Part shown: positions 49,191 to 58,441 of the stretch, piece after piece
How the letters are laid out: each line of letters starts with the position of its first letter
Position numbering within the stretch: position 1 is the stretch's first letter
Program-made: the position numbers and the translations under genes
Source: Planctomycetota bacterium
GTDB taxonomy: Bacteria > Planctomycetota > UBA1135
Direction of reading: 5' to 3'
DNA: 64,000 nucleotides
NCBI GenBank assembly: GCA_045047305.1
Contig: JASFYO010000029.1
Location: 32,001 to 96,000 of the forward strand
Notes under the pieces: model-generated
What the model saw: only the letters and a program-made list of their open reading frames with translations
The model's database searches: none
Told to the model about the DNA's origin: nothing

Positions 49191-50117
49191 ATGCTGCGCA
49201 CCGCACTCCTCTCTCTGGTGCTCCTCACATCCTGTTCAGGCTCGATGACTGATACCGCTCCTACGACACGCCTGAACCTTGCGATTCCTACCCTCGGTGG
49301 AAAGCAGTTCTGGGCGGACCGCCGTTGGCGAGGCGGGTGGCGTATTCAAGAAAACGTGATCACGGGTCACCATCGCCTGCTCGATCCCCAAGACAAGCGT
49401 CGCGCATGGGGTAATCTGCCAGCATGCCTATTGGAGTTAGAAGCCCGTGCGCCACAGGTGAGCCCCTCGGACAACACTCTTGTCATTCTTCTCCATGGCA
49501 TGGGCCGCAGTCGCTCGGCCTTCTCCAAAATGCAAGAAGAGTTGCAAGCGCAAGGGTTTCATGTAGCTTCCATTTCCTACCCCAGCACGCGACGTCCCAT
49601 CGAAGCTCATGCGCAGCAAGTTGCCGAGCTCTTAGAAAACTTACAAGGGTACTCCAGAGTCAGTTTCGTCACCCATAGCCTTGGCGGCATCGTGATACGC
49701 CGCCTGCTCGCCGACCGCGGGGATTGGATGCGGGAAATTGACGTCGAACGCTTGGTCATGCTGGCGCCGCCGAACCAAGGGTCAGACTTTGCCCTGAAGC
49801 TAGAATCCTTCGCACCTTATCGGTGGCTCTTCGGCGAAACTGGACAAAGTTTGACTCCAGAAGCCATGCGTAAAATGCCTGTACCTGAAATACCATTTTT
49901 AGTCATTGCAGGCTCAAGTGGAAAACCAGATGGCTACAACAGCATGCTGAACGGCGATGATGACTTCGTGGTTAGGGTTGCCGAAACGCATCTTGCGGGC
50001 GAAACTGCGCACCTCACGGTGCCAAGCCTGCATACCTTTTTAATGAACCAAGACTTGACCATCGCCGCAACCGCCGGCTTCCTGCGTGATGGAACCGTGA
50101 CTACGGAAATCCCCTAA
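49191..50117 (+). CDS. Alpha/beta hydrolase (esterase/lipase) lipoprotein
   Basis: Lipobox LTSC; LLHG, THSLGG, PPNQGS, DDFVV, H. Confidence 0.85.
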   Translation: MLRTALLSLVLLTSCSGSMTDTAPTTRLNLAIPTLGGKQFWADRRWRGGWRIQENVITGHHRLLDPQDKRRAWGNLPACLLELEARAPQVSPSDNTLVILLHGMGRSRSAFSKMQEELQAQGFHVASISYPSTRRPIEAHAQQVAELLENLQGYSRVSFVTHSLGGIVIRRLLADRGDWMREIDVERLVMLAPPNQGSDFALKLESFAPYRWLFGETGQSLTPEAMRKMPVPEIPFLVIAGSSGKPDGYNSMLNGDDDFVVRVAETHLAGETAHLTVPSLHTFLMNQDLTIAATAGFLRDGTVTTEIP

Positions 50118-50121
50118 CGGA

Positions 50122-51087
50122 ATGCTCCGCTTAGTATTAATCTGTGCATTCGCGTTTGCATCCTGTGGAAACCCTCCATCGGAAGCGCTTCCACCAGCAA
50201 CACCACCCTCCACTCCCATCGGCCTCCTCCCAAATATCCCACTGCCCACCTTTGGGGGCATCCAATTCTGGGCTGACCGTCGTTGGCAAGAAGGTTGGCG
50301 AATCCAACAGCACGTTTTCACCAAAGAACATCGGCTACTGGATCCAAAGCAAATCAGGATTGCATGGGGAACGCTTGAGGCTTGTGAAGAAGTTATGCGG
50401 CAACGTGCGCCCGCCCCCCCAGTGAAGGATCAGAGTCTTGTCGTTTTACTGCACGGCATCGCCGACAGTCGCCTGAGTTTTTGGCGACTGGAAGACAAAT
50501 TGCACAAGGATGGCTGGCAAGTTGCATCTTTGTCTTATCCAAGCACCCACCAATCGCTGCAACAACATGCGGATCATCTTTCCGAGGTGATTGAACACCT
50601 ACGTGGTTACCGCCAAGTACATTTTGTCACCCATAGTCTTGGTGGCATTGTGCTGCGCCGTTTCTTGGCCGATGCTGGAGCTTGGCAAAAAACCGTGGAA
50701 GTTGGGCGCATTGTGATGATTGGCCCACCAAACCAAGGTGCTTTATTTGCAGAGAAAGTGGAATCCTTTCCGCCGTACCGCTGGATTTTTGGAGATGCCG
50801 GTAACAGTCTTACTCCTACTGCCATGCAATCTTTGCCTGCTCCCCAAGTCCCATTCCTTGTCATCGCTGGCTCTCGGGGCCAGAAAAACGGTTGGAACCC
50901 GATTCTTCCAGGTGACGACGACTTTGTGGTTCGCGTTTCCGAAACGCATCTGCAAGGCGAGAGCGGCCACTTGCAAGTAAAGAGCGTACATGGCTTTATG
51001 ATGAACCACGATGGTGTGATTGCTGCCACCCTGGAATTCCTAAATAGCGGCAAGGTAATGGATCAAAGTTCACTTTCCGAAATGTGA
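50122..51087 (+). CDS. Alpha/beta hydrolase lipoprotein, tandem paralog of 49191-50117
   Basis: Lipobox FASC; LLHG, THSLGG, PPNQG, DDFVVRV; shared PT.GG.QFWADRRW N-domain. Confidence 0.85.
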   Translation: MLRLVLICAFAFASCGNPPSEALPPATPPSTPIGLLPNIPLPTFGGIQFWADRRWQEGWRIQQHVFTKEHRLLDPKQIRIAWGTLEACEEVMRQRAPAPPVKDQSLVVLLHGIADSRLSFWRLEDKLHKDGWQVASLSYPSTHQSLQQHADHLSEVIEHLRGYRQVHFVTHSLGGIVLRRFLADAGAWQKTVEVGRIVMIGPPNQGALFAEKVESFPPYRWIFGDAGNSLTPTAMQSLPAPQVPFLVIAGSRGQKNGWNPILPGDDDFVVRVSETHLQGESGHLQVKSVHGFMMNHDGVIAATLEFLNSGKVMDQSSLSEM

Positions 51088-52132: not shown

Positions 52133-52438
52133 TTAGCTAATCACAGGTTCGACCGGATTCGCTTCGTAAATCCGAATCTCTGGTCCACCTACGATGAGAT
52201 TGGGAATACGCACACCTAACTCACGGAAGTGATCCGTAGCAAAGTGAAAGTCAATCGCTGCCTGATCCGCCCACTGCTCATAGAAGTGCACCATGTCTGG
52301 ATCCTCCGACGAAAAGAAGTAGCGGTAGCTAATGCAACCTAGCTCCGCACGTGACGGCTCCAGCATTCCATTCAGTAATTTAATCAGTTCCGCACGCTTT
52401 CCAGGCGCGGCCTTCATCTCGGCAATGATGATGCGCAT
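52133..52438 (-). CDS. Putative quinol monooxygenase (ABM domain)
   Basis: SRAELGCISY, FYEQWADQAAIDFHFATDHF. Confidence 0.85.
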   Translation of the reverse strand: MRIIIAEMKAAPGKRAELIKLLNGMLEPSRAELGCISYRYFFSSEDPDMVHFYEQWADQAAIDFHFATDHFRELGVRIPNLIVGGPEIRIYEANPVEPVIS

Positions 52439-52447
52439 GTTTAGATT

Positions 52448-53011
52448 TTACCGTTTGCCCTTAGCCTTATCCTCGACACGTTTCATGTCAATCACCATGT
52501 TCTTCTCGCCGTTGGCAAAGAAAGTAATGGTGTAGGCATCCTTGGTACGTACGGTTTCATTGTACATTTCGGTCATTTTTCCCATGGCATCTGGCGCCTT
52601 CCACTTCATGGTTAAGACCTTGCCTTGCTTATCGTAATTACCTTTCATGACACTGAAAGTTGTGCTTACGTTATCCATCCAAGTTCCCACATACTGCTTT
52701 GCTATTGGATCATAACCCGAATAGCCAAAGCCGTTGTATTCACCCATGGGCCCCATGGAAGTCGTGAAGTAGGAGTGAACCCAAAATGGGCCTTGCGCTG
52801 TAACCACTTCGGAAGCTGGCATCGGCATTTCTGGAACGCCCGGCATAAACATGGTGACCGTGCCTTCCCAGTTACCAACGCCTTCCTGCAGCGCCTTATG
52901 CTGCGCGGTCGGTTTCGGCATTTGAGGTTCTTGGTTCCACACGCTGGTCGCCGCAAACACTGCGGAACCTGCGACTGTAAGAATGAGGGTAGCTAGGAGA
53001 GTTTTCTTCAT
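52448..53011 (-). CDS. DUF1579-like secreted protein
   Basis: P.PTAQH..L...VGNW, GYDP..KQYVGTWMD. Confidence 0.75.
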   Translation of the reverse strand: MKKTLLATLILTVAGSAVFAATSVWNQEPQMPKPTAQHKALQEGVGNWEGTVTMFMPGVPEMPMPASEVVTAQGPFWVHSYFTTSMGPMGEYNGFGYSGYDPIAKQYVGTWMDNVSTTFSVMKGNYDKQGKVLTMKWKAPDAMGKMTEMYNETVRTKDAYTITFFANGEKNMVIDMKRVEDKAKGKR

Positions 53012-53016
53012 GACAT

Positions 53017-56000
53017 TTATGATGTTACTTGAGGGCTGCGGAAATGGCTATCCAATGCCGCGACATCGCGCAAGAGCTGTAGATGGTCCACTTCCACGGT
53101 GATTGAGCCGAATTCATCTCGTGCGATGCCTTCAATCACGTAAGGTCCGCGGGTTAAAGTCCATGGGGCCAGGCGTTTATAGGCCTGTGGAAAAAGCACG
53201 GTTTCATAGAGAGCAGTGGTGTCCTCAAAAGAAAGGAAGGACATGGATTCCCCGCTTTTGGTGCGCACTGGTTTCTGCGTCACCTGCCACCCAACCAACC
53301 GCACCCTACGCCCGGCATACTTTGCCAAATCGCGCGCAGGGACGACGTCGACGGCGCGGATGGCTTCTTGATGCAAACTGAGTGGATGACGTGAGACCAA
53401 ATATCCGAGCGTTTCCTCCTCCATCTCGAGCAATCGACGGATACTAAATTCGGCAGCGGTGGGTGGCGCGGGCACTCCGGGATCTGCAAACAAACGTGCT
53501 TCGCGTACTGCAGATGCCGTGCGCGAGGACTTGTACAGCGCCGTCCAACGCATCCGTTCAGGACGGGTGAATCCGTCGGGCAGTCCATCCATAGCACCGG
53601 CGCGCACCAACAATTCCAGCTGCTCGCGGGTCGGTGTTAAGCGCGACACAAAATCCTGCATTCCGATGTAAGGCCCACCATGCTCCCGTTCTTCCAGCAA
53701 CTGTGGCACGAGGGCTCTACGTAATCCTTGAATCTCATATAGGCCCGTGCGCAAACTCCGTGCACGCCCGAAGAAATGTCCGCCGCCACGATTCACACAT
53801 GGACGCTCAACCGTCAGCCCCATACGTAAAGCTTCTGCGACGTAAGCAAAACTCGCGTAAAAGCCGCCATGATTGCGCAACACCGACGCCATGAATTCCG
53901 CTGGATGATGCGCACGCAAGTACGCCGAGCGATAGCTCACCTCCGCATAACTTGCCGAATGCGCTTTGCAAAAAGAGTATCCAGCAAAAGACTCAATCTG
54001 CCGCCACAACTCCGCGGCAACCTCGACTGTCAGCCCCGCCTTCTGTACGCCACACATAAAGGTAGAACGCCATTCAGGCAAACGCTTATGCGCACCCTTT
54101 TTGGTCATGGCCTTACGCAAGCCGTCGGCATCGGCCGCGGTCATCCCTGCCAGACGTTGTGCGACACGCAGTACATCTTCTTGATAAGCCATCACCCCAT
54201 AGGTTTCGCTGAAAAGCTCGCGCAAAAGTGGGTGCAGGTACCAATCCGCTTGATGCTTGCCAGTAGTGCGCACCGCATGATGGCGCTCGATATAGGCCTG
54301 CATCATGCCGGAGGAAGAAATGCCCGGGCGAATAATGGAGGACGCCGCAACCAAAGTCGTGAACTCGCGGCAGCGTAATTTCCGTAAGAGACTACGCATG
54401 CTAGGCGATTCGATATAGAAGCAACCCATGGTGTCGCCCGCAGCGATCATCTCTTGCGTGCGTAAATCAGTTTTAGGATTGAGGCGCCCGAATCCAAGCT
54501 TGATGCCGCTGTTACGACGCACCATCTTTTGCGCATCCCGCACCACTGCGAGCCCGCGGTTGCCAAGCAAATCAATTTTCAACAGGCCTGCGTCTTCGAC
54601 CGGCCCCATATCCCACTGGGTGATCACCAGATGCCCGTCTTCGGTTTGCTTACGCGCGCGTTGCAGTGGCAAATGGTCGGTCAGCGCTGTTGGCGCCAAC
54701 ACCATGCCGCCTGCATGCACGCCGAGATGACGCGGAAAGCCGTCGATGGCAACGGCTTGCTGCAAAATGGTGCGCCAAGGTTCTTCCTGCAACGGTAGCT
54801 GCGCAGATTTTGGGTGTGACCGCAGGCGGTCTAAATCAAGGCCGCCGCGTGACCATGGAAGCGCACGCGTGATCGGCGTGATTTCCACTGGCGGCACCCC
54901 CATCGCTTTGGCGAGCTCACGAATCGCGCCGCGTGCACCAAAGGTAACATGCGTGCTGAGCATAGCCACATGATCATTGCCGTGGCGGCGCACCATGCGG
55001 TCAAGCACGCGGTCGCGTTCATCCCAAGCGAAGTCGAGGTCGACATCGGGGAAATCAGGGCGTCCGCGGTTGAGGAAGCGGTCGAACCACAAATCATGCT
55101 GCAGTGGGTCAACATGCGTGAAGCCGAGCAAATAACTCACCAAGCTGTTGGCGGCAGATCCGCGTCCACAGTTCTGAATGCCTTGCTGCTGCGCCCACGA
55201 CACGATGTCCGCGACAATGAGGAAGTAGTCAGATAAATCCTGCTCGCGAATCAGCTGCAATTCACGCTGCAGTTGCTGCGCATAGGCTTCATTCCAAGCT
55301 AAACCACGACAGGTTATGCCCGCACGGCAGGCGCGCTCTAATTCTGCCCAGGCTGCCGCTTGATGCGCGACGGGGTCGGCGTGAGGATCACCACCGATAT
55401 CCGACTTCAACCGCAGCCGCGGCATACGCTTTACCCCTAGCGGAATACGGTAATCCGCACGCTCCGCCAACTCGCGCGCACGCTGCAACGACTCCGGGTA
55501 ATAGCGGTAATCCATGCCTAACTCCAGTTCATTGCGCAACCATGCAGGCACCTCACGAGCACGACTTCCACGGATACTTGGGTCGGCGCAAGCGAGAGCG
55601 GCGGCGGGCAAGCGCGACAGATTGGTGTTGCGCCCGATCGCAACCAGTAAGCGATGACGTGTGAAATCCTCTGGCGATGCGAAGACCACCGCAGGGCATG
55701 CCAAAGTGGGCAATTGCAAAGTGCTTGCCAAATCCGCATCTCTTTGTGCACGTGCGCCACTTTGCTGTGCGACATACAAATCCTCATCGCCACTTTGCGC
55801 TTGCAAGGCACGCAACAGATCACCGTGGCGCGAAAGGATGGCAAAGCTTCCGCTAGCAACTCTCTCACGCTCCTCTAGCAACCACTGCAACAGCAAACGC
55901 GGTATGCCTAAGCCGACATGCTCGACAAAAACCATGGCCGCCCCACGTACTGGAGACAGTGTCAGCTGCACTTTGGTGGAGAGCCGACACAGCGCAGCCC

Positions 56001-56247
56001 ATCCATCTGAGTTCATGGCAAGCAGCTGAGCCTCCACGCCTTCTACACGCAAACGCAGGCCAAAAACTGGCTTGACTCCCTTACTTTCGCACGCGCGTTG
56101 AAATGGAACCGCACCCCATAAGCCATTGAGGTCTGCCATGCCAAGAGCCGCCACCCCACGCTCTGCCGCCGCCGTGGCTAGTTCTGCGACTCGCGAAGCC
56201 CCCCAGTGGAAAGACCAGGGTGTCGCTACTGAGAGTTGCGCAGCCAC
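53017..56247 (-). CDS. dnaE2: Error-prone DNA polymerase III alpha subunit (DnaE2-like)
   Basis: GRGSAANS, PDVDLDF, KIDLLG, FCKAHSASY, OB fold; 1076 aa with no tau-binding tail, degenerate PHP; in a lexA operon. Confidence 0.85.
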   Translation of the reverse strand: MAAQLSVATPWSFHWGASRVAELATAAAERGVAALGMADLNGLWGAVPFQRACESKGVKPVFGLRLRVEGVEAQLLAMNSDGWAALCRLSTKVQLTLSPVRGAAMVFVEHVGLGIPRLLLQWLLEERERVASGSFAILSRHGDLLRALQAQSGDEDLYVAQQSGARAQRDADLASTLQLPTLACPAVVFASPEDFTRHRLLVAIGRNTNLSRLPAAALACADPSIRGSRAREVPAWLRNELELGMDYRYYPESLQRARELAERADYRIPLGVKRMPRLRLKSDIGGDPHADPVAHQAAAWAELERACRAGITCRGLAWNEAYAQQLQRELQLIREQDLSDYFLIVADIVSWAQQQGIQNCGRGSAANSLVSYLLGFTHVDPLQHDLWFDRFLNRGRPDFPDVDLDFAWDERDRVLDRMVRRHGNDHVAMLSTHVTFGARGAIRELAKAMGVPPVEITPITRALPWSRGGLDLDRLRSHPKSAQLPLQEEPWRTILQQAVAIDGFPRHLGVHAGGMVLAPTALTDHLPLQRARKQTEDGHLVITQWDMGPVEDAGLLKIDLLGNRGLAVVRDAQKMVRRNSGIKLGFGRLNPKTDLRTQEMIAAGDTMGCFYIESPSMRSLLRKLRCREFTTLVAASSIIRPGISSSGMMQAYIERHHAVRTTGKHQADWYLHPLLRELFSETYGVMAYQEDVLRVAQRLAGMTAADADGLRKAMTKKGAHKRLPEWRSTFMCGVQKAGLTVEVAAELWRQIESFAGYSFCKAHSASYAEVSYRSAYLRAHHPAEFMASVLRNHGGFYASFAYVAEALRMGLTVERPCVNRGGGHFFGRARSLRTGLYEIQGLRRALVPQLLEEREHGGPYIGMQDFVSRLTPTREQLELLVRAGAMDGLPDGFTRPERMRWTALYKSSRTASAVREARLFADPGVPAPPTAAEFSIRRLLEMEEETLGYLVSRHPLSLHQEAIRAVDVVPARDLAKYAGRRVRLVGWQVTQKPVRTKSGESMSFLSFEDTTALYETVLFPQAYKRLAPWTLTRGPYVIEGIARDEFGSITVEVDHLQLLRDVAALDSHFRSPQVTS

Positions 56248-57422
56248 AGCCGATCTCCTGCACGCACCGACTTTTCACCGTATTTAGCACGCATCCGGTC
56301 CATCACCGCTAAGCGCCCGCGCTGCACCACGCGTTCTTCTTCGAACAATCCGCCTTGCCAAAAGCCACGTTCCAAGCCACTAAAACGCACGCCGACTAAA
56401 CGCACCAGAGTGCGCCGCTTCTTCAACACTCGTTCGAGCAAGGAACTAGCAAGCTCCCACCATTCCAAATCATGGTCACTTGGCCGCGGCAAAGTGGCAT
56501 CCCGTGTTTCAGTGGTGAAATCCGCATAACGCACCTTGATACTGATGGTGCGTGCCAACAAACCTTTCTCGCGTAGCTCCGCGCAACACTTTTCCAGCAT
56601 GCGCTGCATACGTCCACGCAGAACTAAGAGGTCATCGGTGTCTTCTGCAAAAGTGCGTTCCTGGCTTAGCGATTTACGCGCAGTCTTCTCCCACGGTGGA
56701 CGCACTGGGGTTTGATCTTCACCCTTGGCACGCCGACGCATCGAGCGACCATAACGCCCGAAGACATCTTCTAGAAACCAGCCATCGGTGTCCGCGAGCA
56801 CGCCAAGTTGGTCGATATGGAAATCACGCAAGCGTTTCTGCGTGACTGGGCCGATACCAGGCAACACCTTCACCGGAAGCGGCGCAAAGAAACGTGACTC
56901 CTGTCCAGGGCGGACATCGAAGAGTCCATGCGGTTTGGCAAATCCAGACGCCACCTTACTCACCAAACGGTTCTGCGAAACCCCCACGGTAAGATCTAAG
57001 CGCAAACGCTCCTTCACTTCTTTGCGCATATGATCGGCCGCATCTAAAGAGCGCCCGAAAAAGTGTTCGGTGCCGCGCAAATCCAAATACGCTTCGTCGA
57101 CGGAGACCTTTTCCACAATCGGCGTATACGAGCCCAGTAGGTCAAACACCGCTTTCGATGCCCGCGCATACACACCGCGGGTTGCACTCACACGGACTAA
57201 ATCCGGGCACAAGCGCATCGCTTGCCCCATCGGCATGGCGGAGTGCACCCCAAACTGTCGTGCTTCATAGGAGGCTGCGGCCACCACACCGCGACCTTCT
57301 ACCGGCCCGCCCACGACCACTGGGCGACCATTCAAACGCGGGTCCAAGACCCGCTCCACCGAAACGAAGAAGGCATCTAGGTCCACATGCAGGACCGAAC
57401 GCGGAGCCTCTTCTTGATTCAT
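56226..57422 (-). CDS. dinB: Y-family DNA polymerase (Pol IV/DinB-like)
   Basis: HVDLDAFFVSVE, AASYEAR, SVDEAYLD, SKVAS..KP; C-terminal QGGLF and DRMRAKYG. Confidence 0.9.
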   Translation of the reverse strand: MNQEEAPRSVLHVDLDAFFVSVERVLDPRLNGRPVVVGGPVEGRGVVAAASYEARQFGVHSAMPMGQAMRLCPDLVRVSATRGVYARASKAVFDLLGSYTPIVEKVSVDEAYLDLRGTEHFFGRSLDAADHMRKEVKERLRLDLTVGVSQNRLVSKVASGFAKPHGLFDVRPGQESRFFAPLPVKVLPGIGPVTQKRLRDFHIDQLGVLADTDGWFLEDVFGRYGRSMRRRAKGEDQTPVRPPWEKTARKSLSQERTFAEDTDDLLVLRGRMQRMLEKCCAELREKGLLARTISIKVRYADFTTETRDATLPRPSDHDLEWWELASSLLERVLKKRRTLVRLVGVRFSGLERGFWQGGLFEEERVVQRGRLAVMDRMRAKYGEKSVRAGDRLWLRNSQ

Positions 57423-57772
57423 GCCTCTTCAGATTGGTCTGGCTCAAACTGACGTAAACGCCCCACCACCACACCGCGCACTTGCGCCGACATCCTTTCT
57501 GCAGGCGGCAAGAAACCACCCACTCCTTTAAAACTGAAGTCATCTTGCACGCGCGCCAAAGCCAAAGTGCGCTCGACGCCAGTCCACCACACCACCAAAT
57601 CGCCGGCTTCGACATCGACGCCTTCGGTGATGGCGAACACATCGCCCACGCGTAATTGCTCCTCGTCTTCCGCTGGCTCACCGCGGAGTGCGAGGAAAAA
57701 CGTATGCGGACTATCCGAAAATTGACCGGCCTGGCCGCCCATCTCTACTTCTTCCAACATCACTGCAGGCAT
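57419..57772 (-). CDS. Small S24-fold (LexA-CTD/UmuD'-like) protein lacking catalytic Ser/Lys
   Basis: 117 aa from ATG 57772; TFFLALRGE, GDVFAI, GDLVVW, VRGVVVGRLR parallel the LexA C-terminal domain; 4 nt after the lexA stop, ATGA overlap with dinB. Confidence 0.65.
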   Translation of the reverse strand: MPAVMLEEVEMGGQAGQFSDSPHTFFLALRGEPAEDEEQLRVGDVFAITEGVDVEAGDLVVWWTGVERTLALARVQDDFSFKGVGGFLPPAERMSAQVRGVVVGRLRQFEPDQSEEA

Positions 57773-57776
57773 TTTT

Positions 57777-58406
57777 TTATCCCCAACAACGCAACACTCC
57801 GACCACACGCCCTGCCAAAGCAAAGCTTTCTCCAGGATGTATCACGCGGTCGGAAAGCGCGCAATTCTCTGGATGTAACACAATACGCCCGGCCTCCGGC
57901 AAATACCGCTTGACCGTGGCCTCCATTTCTTCGCCGTCGCCCAATAAGGCCACCACGATTTCTCCACGCGCGACCTGAGCCGCTTGTTCGACTAAAACTA
58001 GGTCCCCATCGAGGATGCCGGCTTCGATCATGGAGTCGCCTTGCACACGCAAAGCGAAATCTGCGCAGCTGCCATCCAGCCGCGGCAACTGGCCCTCTCG
58101 GTTTTCTAGCGCGAGGATGGGTACGCCTGCTGCAACCCGGCCGAGGATAGGAATTGCCGTTTCTGAGGCCGTTACAAGCAAAATCCGAATCGAACGCGAA
58201 TTCCTACCCAGTTCCACATAACCTTTTCGCTCCAGCGCCCGAAGATGAAAGTCGGCGGTTTGTGCACTCACTCCCAATTTCGCCCCCAGCTCCGCGCGAG
58301 TTGGCGGACATTCCTGAGCAGCTTGAGCCTGTTGCAACACGGCCAATACCGCGCTTTGACGCGGACTCAGCGGCTCCAGGCCTTCAGCAGCGGACAAACT
58401 TCCCAT
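57777..58406 (-). CDS. lexA: LexA transcriptional repressor
   Basis: wHTH (PPTRAEL...HLRALERKGY), cleavage site GRVAAG, VQGDSM (Ser), ATVKR (Lys). Confidence 0.93.
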   Translation of the reverse strand: MGSLSAAEGLEPLSPRQSAVLAVLQQAQAAQECPPTRAELGAKLGVSAQTADFHLRALERKGYVELGRNSRSIRILLVTASETAIPILGRVAAGVPILALENREGQLPRLDGSCADFALRVQGDSMIEAGILDGDLVLVEQAAQVARGEIVVALLGDGEEMEATVKRYLPEAGRIVLHPENCALSDRVIHPGESFALAGRVVGVLRCWG

Positions 58407-58413
58407 ACCGACC

Positions 58414-58441
58414 ACTATATGATAAATATCAGATATCGCAA
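58414..58441 (-). promoter_or_regulatory. lexA operon promoter with embedded palindrome (candidate SOS box)
   Basis: TTGCGA-16 nt-TATAGT, 7 nt before ATG; TGATAAATATCA (58420-58431) in the spacer. Confidence 0.6.

Follow-up and report, generated by a model that had tools for sequence, protein, structure and literature searches.

Operons in which an active Y-family DNA polymerase (PolY) is encoded beside DnaE2, and ImuA is missing, have been described in Bacteroidetes (PMC6511836). A further study distinguishes 11 types of multimeric complexes, among them DnaE2B-PolY-RecA, and reports DnaE2B in genomes without imuA and imuB (PMC12926913); both papers propose that in this PolY-DnaE2 class the place of ImuA is taken by RecA. 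(Here and below, papers are cited by PMC number from excerpts of their text.) Here, we describe a cassette of this kind from a Planctomycetota bacterium, located at positions 53,017 to 58,441 of a stretch of 64,000 nucleotides, which we call the window (assembly GCA_045047305.1, contig JASFYO010000029.1, positions 32,001 to 96,000; all coordinates without a locus name refer to the window). The window is part of the contig designated C29 in an assembly of 2.83 Mb with a completeness of 87.7%. The order of genes is lexA, an open reading frame (ORF) for 117 residues, polY, and dnaE2. The PolY-DnaE2 core is of the known type DnaE2B-PolY-RecA; the new part is the product of the ORF, a small protein with the S24 fold of LexA, UmuD, and cI, which is predicted to bind PolY at the surface by which E. 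coli DinB reportedly contacts UmuD, and not at a UmuC-like tail.

The cassette shares with DnaE2B-PolY-RecA the active PolY beside DnaE2, the lack of any detected ImuA or ImuB, the DnaE2 clade, and, judged by eye, a clamp motif in PolY; a PolY tail that by eye resembles the N-terminus of RecA (RecA-NT) may be a further common trait, although a profile of it failed to match RecA (see below). Unlike the published type, it adds the S24-fold subunit and a canonical LexA with a box of its own. None of the 11 types given in the excerpts of PMC12926913 combines PolY-DnaE2 with an S24 subunit, a comparison which did not cover the data-file rows for this family, and literature searches, which most subscription papers lay outside of, gave no description of the small protein or the four-gene architecture. 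An earlier note, made from the sequence of the window, had seen here a candidate for an undescribed system; this applies to the S24 subunit, whereas PolY-DnaE2 without ImuA and ImuB has been described (PMC6511836, PMC12926913).

Like phage P1, whose HumD is a ready-shortened form of UmuD (PMC7092418), and like Pol V, the cassette has an S24-fold small gene directly upstream of a Y polymerase. Unlike in Pol V, this polymerase is Pol IV-like, is encoded together with DnaE2, and has no UmuC tail that is conserved; unlike UmuD of Pol V, the small protein has neither the Ser-Lys dyad nor the scissile bond. With the ImuA-ImuB-DnaE2A mutasome the cassette has lexA at the head and dnaE2 at the end in common, but no ImuA, catalytically dead ImuB, or ImuB-C was found, and its DnaE2 is of another clade. 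In DnaE2B-PolY-ImuB-C-RecA and YqjW-YqjX(YolD)-RecA, a small barrel subunit is likewise encoded beside PolY, but the subunit of the cassette has the S24 fold. The cassette belongs to neither ImuABC nor Pol V. A complex of E. coli DinB, UmuD2, and RecA was reportedly described by Godoy in 2007. This complex, too, combines a DinB-type polymerase with an S24 protein devoid of a DNA-binding domain, and cleavage is not needed: UmuD2 lowers the frameshifts of DinB (PMC3901139), and noncleavable UmuD reportedly suppresses them fully (PMC6590174). Unlike E. coli UmuD, the partner in the cassette is dedicated, co-operonic, permanently uncleavable, and nearer to LexA by profile; unlike UmuD2, it is predicted to act as one copy, bound via its C-terminal strand.

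Gene arrangement and polymerase core

All four genes lie on the minus strand. The gene lexA (57777..58406; 209 residues from the likely ATG) is followed after a gap of 4 bp by the small gene (57419..57772); the latter overlaps polY (56226..57422; 398 residues) by 4 bp, which in turn overlaps dnaE2 (53017..56247; 1076 residues) by 22 bp. The source genome has a single gene each for a Y-family polymerase and for RecA; LexA is encoded twice, and a further DnaE is of the replicative type. Relatives are Planctomycetota assemblies (29 of 30 loci); the remaining locus is a spurious Oscillochloris match.

PolY is a DinB/Pol IV-type polymerase with an intact active site. It scored 302 bits with the Pol IV model PRK02406 (cut-off 256) and 93 bits with the UmuC model PRK03609 (cut-off 431). 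The residues D14, D16, S107, and D109 are invariant in all 34 aligned PolYs; position 110 is Glu in 32 and Asp in two of them. The tail is variable or absent, and a conserved UmuC tail does not occur. In the source PolY, residues 356-389 (56256..56357, minus strand) comprise a clamp-binding-like motif followed by the RecA-NT-like segment, both recognized by eye; a helix with a YG..V pattern, which by eye resembles the N-terminus of the genome's own RecA, is present in 28 of 31 PolYs that are accompanied by the small protein.

In DnaE2, which we assign to a DnaE2B-like clade, the polymerase aspartates are intact (16 of 16 cassette DnaEs examined), the PHP domain has a degenerate metal motif, and the chain terminates right behind the OB domain. 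Its best plasmid matches are a Desulfosarcina operon lexA-DUF72-polY-like-dnaE and dinB-dnaE operons of Bacteroidetes. In a quick tree of 32 rows, computed without bootstrap, the clade joined two Bacteroidetes dinB-dnaE operons and Desulfosarcina with an SH-aLRT value of 99, apart from DnaE1 and from the DnaE2s of imuABC cassettes (Azospirillum, Thermomicrobium, and the genomes G094 and G141); the DnaE2B references in this tree are stand-ins, as the labelled DnaE2B sequences of PMC12926913 were not among its rows. A quick PolY tree did not resolve the relationships outside the family and did not group the family PolYs with those of Bacteroidetes.

With the ImuA model NF033429, the search of the genome returned only RecA, below the cut-off, and an ImuA query from the family found nothing. 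The corresponding ImuB query found none either, the sole Y-family gene having an intact site, and ImuB-C (PF20114) was not found in the genome. In these respects the earlier note was right: the coordinates agree with its four tightly coupled genes, the Y polymerase keeps its catalytic residues, and neither imuA nor imuB was detected in the operon or in the incomplete genome.

Fold of the small protein and its predicted complex with PolY

As a single sequence, the small ORF matched no family of Pfam or NCBIfam, and a BLAST comparison with the adjacent LexA was not significant; the relationship to S24 proteins emerged from family profiles. PF00717 matched 25 of 40 members, though weakly, and the profile of the small protein matched LexA and UmuD chains in the PDB with E-values from 6e-5 to 2e-3. 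Profile-profile comparison with the cassette LexA gave a probability of 88%. The LexA model TIGR00498 matched 24 of the 40 members, the UmuD model PRK10276 nine, and PHROG 811 ("UmuD-like") 27; none was matched by the HumD model NF051876 or by the YolD family of Pfam. A structure model (pLDDT 81) was most similar to UmuD/UmuD' and to the C-terminal domains of cI and LexA, with a top Z-score of 8.3 and an rmsd of 3.1 over 93 residues. The top rows of Foldseek were UmuD/UmuD' (E-values of 1.5e-3 and weaker), a leaning which is within noise. We conclude that the small protein has the S24 fold. An identity as ImuB-C was also considered and was rejected by profile and fold comparisons as well as by the missing PF20114 match.

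The protein lacks a DNA-binding domain and the residues required for self-cleavage. A Ser and a Lys both near the dyad sites occur in none of the 40 members. Where the scissile Ala-Gly would be expected, a variable residue and Gly follow a degenerate strand which, by eye and by its aligned range, resembles the cleavage-site strand of LexA. This bears out the "dead" S24 protein of the earlier note. Codons 100-109 (57446..57475, minus strand) specify a conserved C-terminal strand, which we take to be the dimer strand of S24 proteins; the N-terminus varies in length by up to 30 residues. It is likely that the protein arose from the C-terminal domain of a planctomycete LexA in the ancestor of the family. 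One could ask whether the gene is just a decayed lexA duplicate or a passenger without a role, as its loss in one genus and its confinement to one family might suggest. Its dN/dS values, which are similar to those of lexA, are between 0.04 and 0.14 for eight pairs (a ninth was saturated), indicating purifying selection, and the frame is open in 20 of 22 genera down to an identity of about 35%. The relic explanation is hence largely refuted, and we find it scarcely credible. In the ESM Atlas, look-alike clusters of 109-116 residues (one viral S24 cluster, two unnamed bacterial ones) were observed, perhaps further S24 proteins devoid of a DNA-binding domain.

For complex prediction, PolY was modelled with two copies of the small protein, and three unrelated proteins served as controls. 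The complex score was 0.72 (median of 0.74, 0.72, and 0.68), the best of the controls reaching 0.00. At least 59% of the contacts were common to the runs, and the pLDDT of PolY was at least 76. Of 157 solved complexes, 116 attained the score mark, as did 2 of 215 mismatched pairs; for a two-copy job, these counts are only a rough guide. One copy of the small protein makes confident contacts, namely with residues 13-24, 47, 49, and 101-109 to PolY 124-144 and 160-186; residues 160-186 (56865..56945, minus strand) form the predicted docking site, and the C-terminal strand is predicted to pair with PolY 166-171. There are no confident contacts on the PolY tail. P172, F178, and L182 of PolY align with P166, F172, and L176 of E. 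coli DinB, which have been cited as UmuD-interacting (PMC4564189); the residues listed for the predicted interface include F178 and L182, and not P172. PolY position 169, which in the model faces R105 and R107 of the small protein, is acidic in all 31 family PolYs, but is Glu in only two of 28 outside PolYs. Arg at position 105 is found in 38 of 40 small proteins, where LexA has Val. Furthermore, one genus has two genomes in which the exchange L106F in the small protein goes with F168C in PolY. The contact between UmuD2 and DinB of E. coli itself rests on mutants and modelling. No solved UmuD-DinB structure was found; of the four UmuD entries found in the PDB, none names a polymerase in its title, and it is therefore unlikely that the prediction recalls a solved complex. 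On the strength of this model, the small protein is predicted to bind PolY at the DinB-UmuD surface.

The model also bears on the suggestion of the earlier note that the small protein is UmuD'-like and follows the logic of Pol V. It would then be a pre-activated dimer required for PolY activity, as in Pol V and phage P1 HumD, with DnaE2 as extender. The Foldseek rows, the PHROG 811 matches, the start/stop overlap with polY in its own genus, and the predicted binding of PolY are all in accordance with this notion. Pol V, however, uses UmuC's C-terminal tail together with the conserved N-terminus of UmuD' (PMC11791011, PMC6511836), whereas the tail of the cassette PolY is variable, and even absent in all three PolYs of genus g4 that keep the small gene, the N-terminus of the small protein differs in length as stated, and the single copy with confident contacts makes none on the tail. 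In addition, the genomes G017 and G063 keep polY-dnaE2 without the small gene. Together with the DinB-type PolY, the predominance of LexA among the outside matches (see below), and the DinB-UmuD2 surface, these results fit Pol V logic poorly, and we regard a UmuD'-like activator as improbable.

Distribution in the family and proposed role of the small protein

We examined 49 genomes of one Planctomycetota family. The small gene was found in 42 (a 43rd match is a weak cross-hit to LexA), polY in 43, and the cassette DnaE2 in 31 genomes. In 16 genomes, a single contig holds all four genes without interruption; the gene order highlighted in the earlier note thus recurs, and the small ORF is conserved. 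When 1.84 billion representatives were searched, 18 matches came up, namely 16 family-like sequences and two spurious long proteins. Among 301 genomes of the phylum, a strong score was obtained only in three, which are family genomes; none of the other Planctomycetota searched yielded a member, and lexA-polY-dnaE operons without the small gene do occur in other Planctomycetota. The best 27 weaker outside matches are 26 full-length LexA proteins and one UmuD.

In 12 genomes, all of them incomplete assemblies, the small gene and polY are present and the cassette DnaE2 was not found; G006 shows a clean deletion of dnaE2 with the small gene and polY kept. Conversely, G017 and G063 possess lexA-polY-dnaE2 without the small gene, which indicates a loss in this genus, as G017 is nested in the family PolY clade. 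In all three genomes of genus g4 (L047, L048, L079), PolY stops at or just after the clamp motif, the RecA-NT-like segment is gone, and the small gene is retained. The small gene is thus tied neither to DnaE2 nor to the PolY tail. In two g4 genomes, we noticed that the helix 13-21 of the small protein and PolY positions 161-162 have both diverged. True imuABC cassettes occur in two of the 49 genomes, both without the cassette DnaE2. These genomes, G094 and G141 (L093, L094), carry a separate lexA-imuA-imuB-dnaE2A, and a DnaE2B-like gene was not found; this suggests that one mutasome replaced the other.

According to the earlier note, the small protein occupies the place of ImuA. Its retention in the 12 genomes without a detected DnaE2, and its absence from the two with lexA-polY-dnaE2, indicate that it does not fill the role of ImuA. 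The same findings speak against a related idea, in which the small protein bridges PolY and DnaE2B in the way modelled for the ImuB-C barrel of other DnaE2 systems. Such a bridge would explain why a PolY-DnaE2 operon whose genome has no detected ImuB-C contains a small barrel, and the thumb, a DnaE2 contact according to published models (PMC12926913), is close to the predicted site. In view of the genomes that keep the small gene without DnaE2, including the G006 deletion, and of DnaE2 without the small gene in G017, G063, and the operons of other Planctomycetota, we consider it very improbable. What remains of the cleavage-independent accessory subunit claimed in the note is a protein without the dyad which is predicted to bind PolY; the role of ImuA is not filled by it. 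Because the small gene is kept without DnaE2 and was lost in one genus, the small protein is likely a manager of PolY, and neither a replacement for ImuA nor an activator in the style of Pol V.

We therefore lean, with somewhat more than even confidence, towards a LexA-repressed translesion cassette of the DnaE2B-PolY-RecA kind, to which a dead S24 protein has been added as a permanent, cleavage-free manager of PolY. DNA damage would activate RecA, the cassette LexA would cleave itself, and the four genes would be expressed. PolY would load on the clamp, use its C-terminal motifs to bind RecA, and act jointly with DnaE2B, perhaps with a division of labour such as the inserter and extender of the earlier note. 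A single copy of the small protein is predicted to pair, via its C-terminal strand, with strand 166-171 at the palm edge of PolY and with the helix before the thumb. The example of uncleaved UmuD2 and E. coli DinB suggests that it may restrain slippage or otherwise tune PolY. As the small protein is uncleavable, its control would be exerted by transcription only.

A different role is suggested by the location of the gene. It lies directly behind lexA in all 39 assessable genomes, even where polY has moved and gained a box of its own. The small protein might then regulate LexA, by forming a heterodimer via the C-terminal strand or by competing for the RecA filament, and thus shape the induction of the cassette. 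The outside matches, nearly all of which are LexA, the excess of TIGR00498 over PRK10276 matches, and the retained remnant of a cleavage-site strand agree with a LexA regulator. On the other hand, the strand that it would need is predicted to be occupied by PolY, Arg105 differs from the Val of LexA and is matched by an acidic PolY residue, and the need for a promoter also explains why the gene stays behind lexA. We rate the regulator as unlikely, though deserving serious consideration. Co-occurrence cannot separate a gene that follows lexA from one that follows polY, because the cassette lexA, the small gene, and polY were all not found in G024, G113, and G150, and lexA of G103 is at a contig end. 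A seeming arrangement lexA-small gene without polY, seen in flanks of 1.5 kb, was rejected since wider loci place polY behind inserted genes or on another contig; the inserted genes differ by genome and look unrelated.

Several observations weigh against the PolY manager. The small gene lies directly before polY in only 35 of 41 genomes, a less constant vicinity than that of lexA. Family-specific conserved PolY residues, as determined in comparison with 28 outside PolYs, are enriched in the interface (7 of 27 versus 25 of 315 elsewhere, Fisher p 0.007), but this analysis was post hoc, related genomes are not independent samples, and the same alignments had gone into the model. F168 and D169 are still present in G017 and G063, two genomes without the small gene, whose PolYs differ at 171, 172, 177, and 183. 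F178 and L182 are common in outside DinB-like PolYs (20 and 26 of 28, respectively). The controls of the complex prediction included no S24 domain, and docking might thus be open to any LexA-like domain; moreover, the prediction used its own alignments and two copies, unlike the calibration of the score. A profile of 29 positions of the RecA-NT-like segment did not match the N-terminus of the genome's own RecA. Finally, whether the small protein would act as a brake or as an activator is judged by analogy only.

If the PolY manager is correct, a repressor protease domain was, besides the case of UmuD, recruited once more as a polymerase subunit, here lacking a cleavage switch; the published list of mutasome types would gain a new subunit class, and a stable natural model of the UmuD-DinB complex would be at hand. 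The co-encoded, confidently predicted pair offers a way to test S24 control of DinB fidelity. Whether the cassette constitutes a twelfth type of error-prone polymerase, consisting of a DinB-type PolY, a monomeric uncleavable subunit derived from the LexA C-terminal domain with a re-aimed dimer strand, RecA, DnaE2B, and an undescribed LexA box, is in our estimation evenly balanced. Note that the core is known, that the range spans a single family of assembled genomes, and that the evidence is computational throughout.

Cassette LexA, its likely operator, and neighbouring genes

The cassette LexA scored 150 bits with TIGR00498 (cut-off 111), and A93, G94, S125, and K166 are invariant in all 33 family cassette LexAs. 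With its intact Ala-Gly, Ser125, and Lys166 it is, to judge from sequence, likely a dedicated cassette repressor. The ATG at 58406 is the more likely start in comparison with the GTG at 58415. The predicted cassette promoter has its -35 hexamer at 58436..58441, at the same position as upstream of other family lexA genes, and its -10 hexamer at 58414..58419, 7 nt before the ATG (both minus strand). It is the sole sigma70-like site between 51900 and 58600, which is not significant by itself as shuffles gave 3.1 sites on average. Given the position of the -10 hexamer, the lexA mRNA is presumably leaderless. The layout of promoter and start recurs across relatives, and several detached genes look leaderless as well.

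Between the two hexamers is a palindromic operator with the family consensus TATGAYAWWTRTCATA (58418..58433, minus strand), the likely box of the cassette LexA. Upstream of the family's lexA genes, 30 of 34 regions contain it with at most three mismatches. The source genome has one strong site of 26.4 bits; the next reaches 14.3 bits, and shuffles give 2-5 sites of at least 15 bits. The exact pattern has 32 sites in 30 of the 49 genomes, compared to one genome for a reversed control. Of 30 exact-pattern loci fetched, 27 are upstream of lexA and three upstream of a detached dnaE2; by weight matrix, the box lies directly upstream of all eight detached dnaE2 genes examined. It also precedes three detached polY genes; a fourth has a weak site (12.9 bits), a fifth, located behind a single inserted gene, has none, and the sixth begins at a contig end. 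At recA (L002), no TATGAYAWWTRTCATA site was observed. The recurrence of the palindrome before lexA and detached dnaE2 genes points to a small dedicated regulon; the cassette LexA likely controls only the cassette, which in turn is likely SOS-regulated and damage-induced, as far as sequence can tell. Literature searches, again with most subscription papers outside, gave no description of the box, including the excerpts of PMC8565304 and PMC13148647, and it is likely an undescribed LexA box, which defines a compact regulon in uncultured Planctomycetota. Besides the window, the box was noted in L033, L034, L036, L038, L040, L045, L046, L097, and L099. A terminator scan of the cassette region gave counts at chance level.

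The second LexA, on contig C61 (G000:C61:3827-4504, L105), is of the common planctomycete type; with respect to the C-terminal strand, it is nearer to the small protein than the cassette LexA is (profile E-values of 9e-4 and 0.23). In genome G001, a cassette LexA (L008:2043-2663) lacks the Ala-Gly segment between two short repeats, which could be a real deletion or an assembly collapse, and a gap of 191 bp separates the shortened LexA from the small gene. Four loci of one genus from another Planctomycetota family (L132, L133, L139, L145) encode full-length LexA homologs with a replaced catalytic Ser motif and no Ala-Gly, which are apparently uncleavable repressors.

Downstream of dnaE2, a DUF1579 and an ABM-family gene follow (52133-53011) with spacings of 5 and 9 bp; they are likely passengers, since they lie near the cassette in only a few relatives. 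In G006, the dnaE2 deletion (L041:3394-4959) fused the end of polY to the last DUF1579 codons, and the ABM gene is next. Further along the window (49191-51087), two tandem alpha/beta-hydrolase-like genes for 308 and 321 residues are alike by eye and are likely the result of a duplication.

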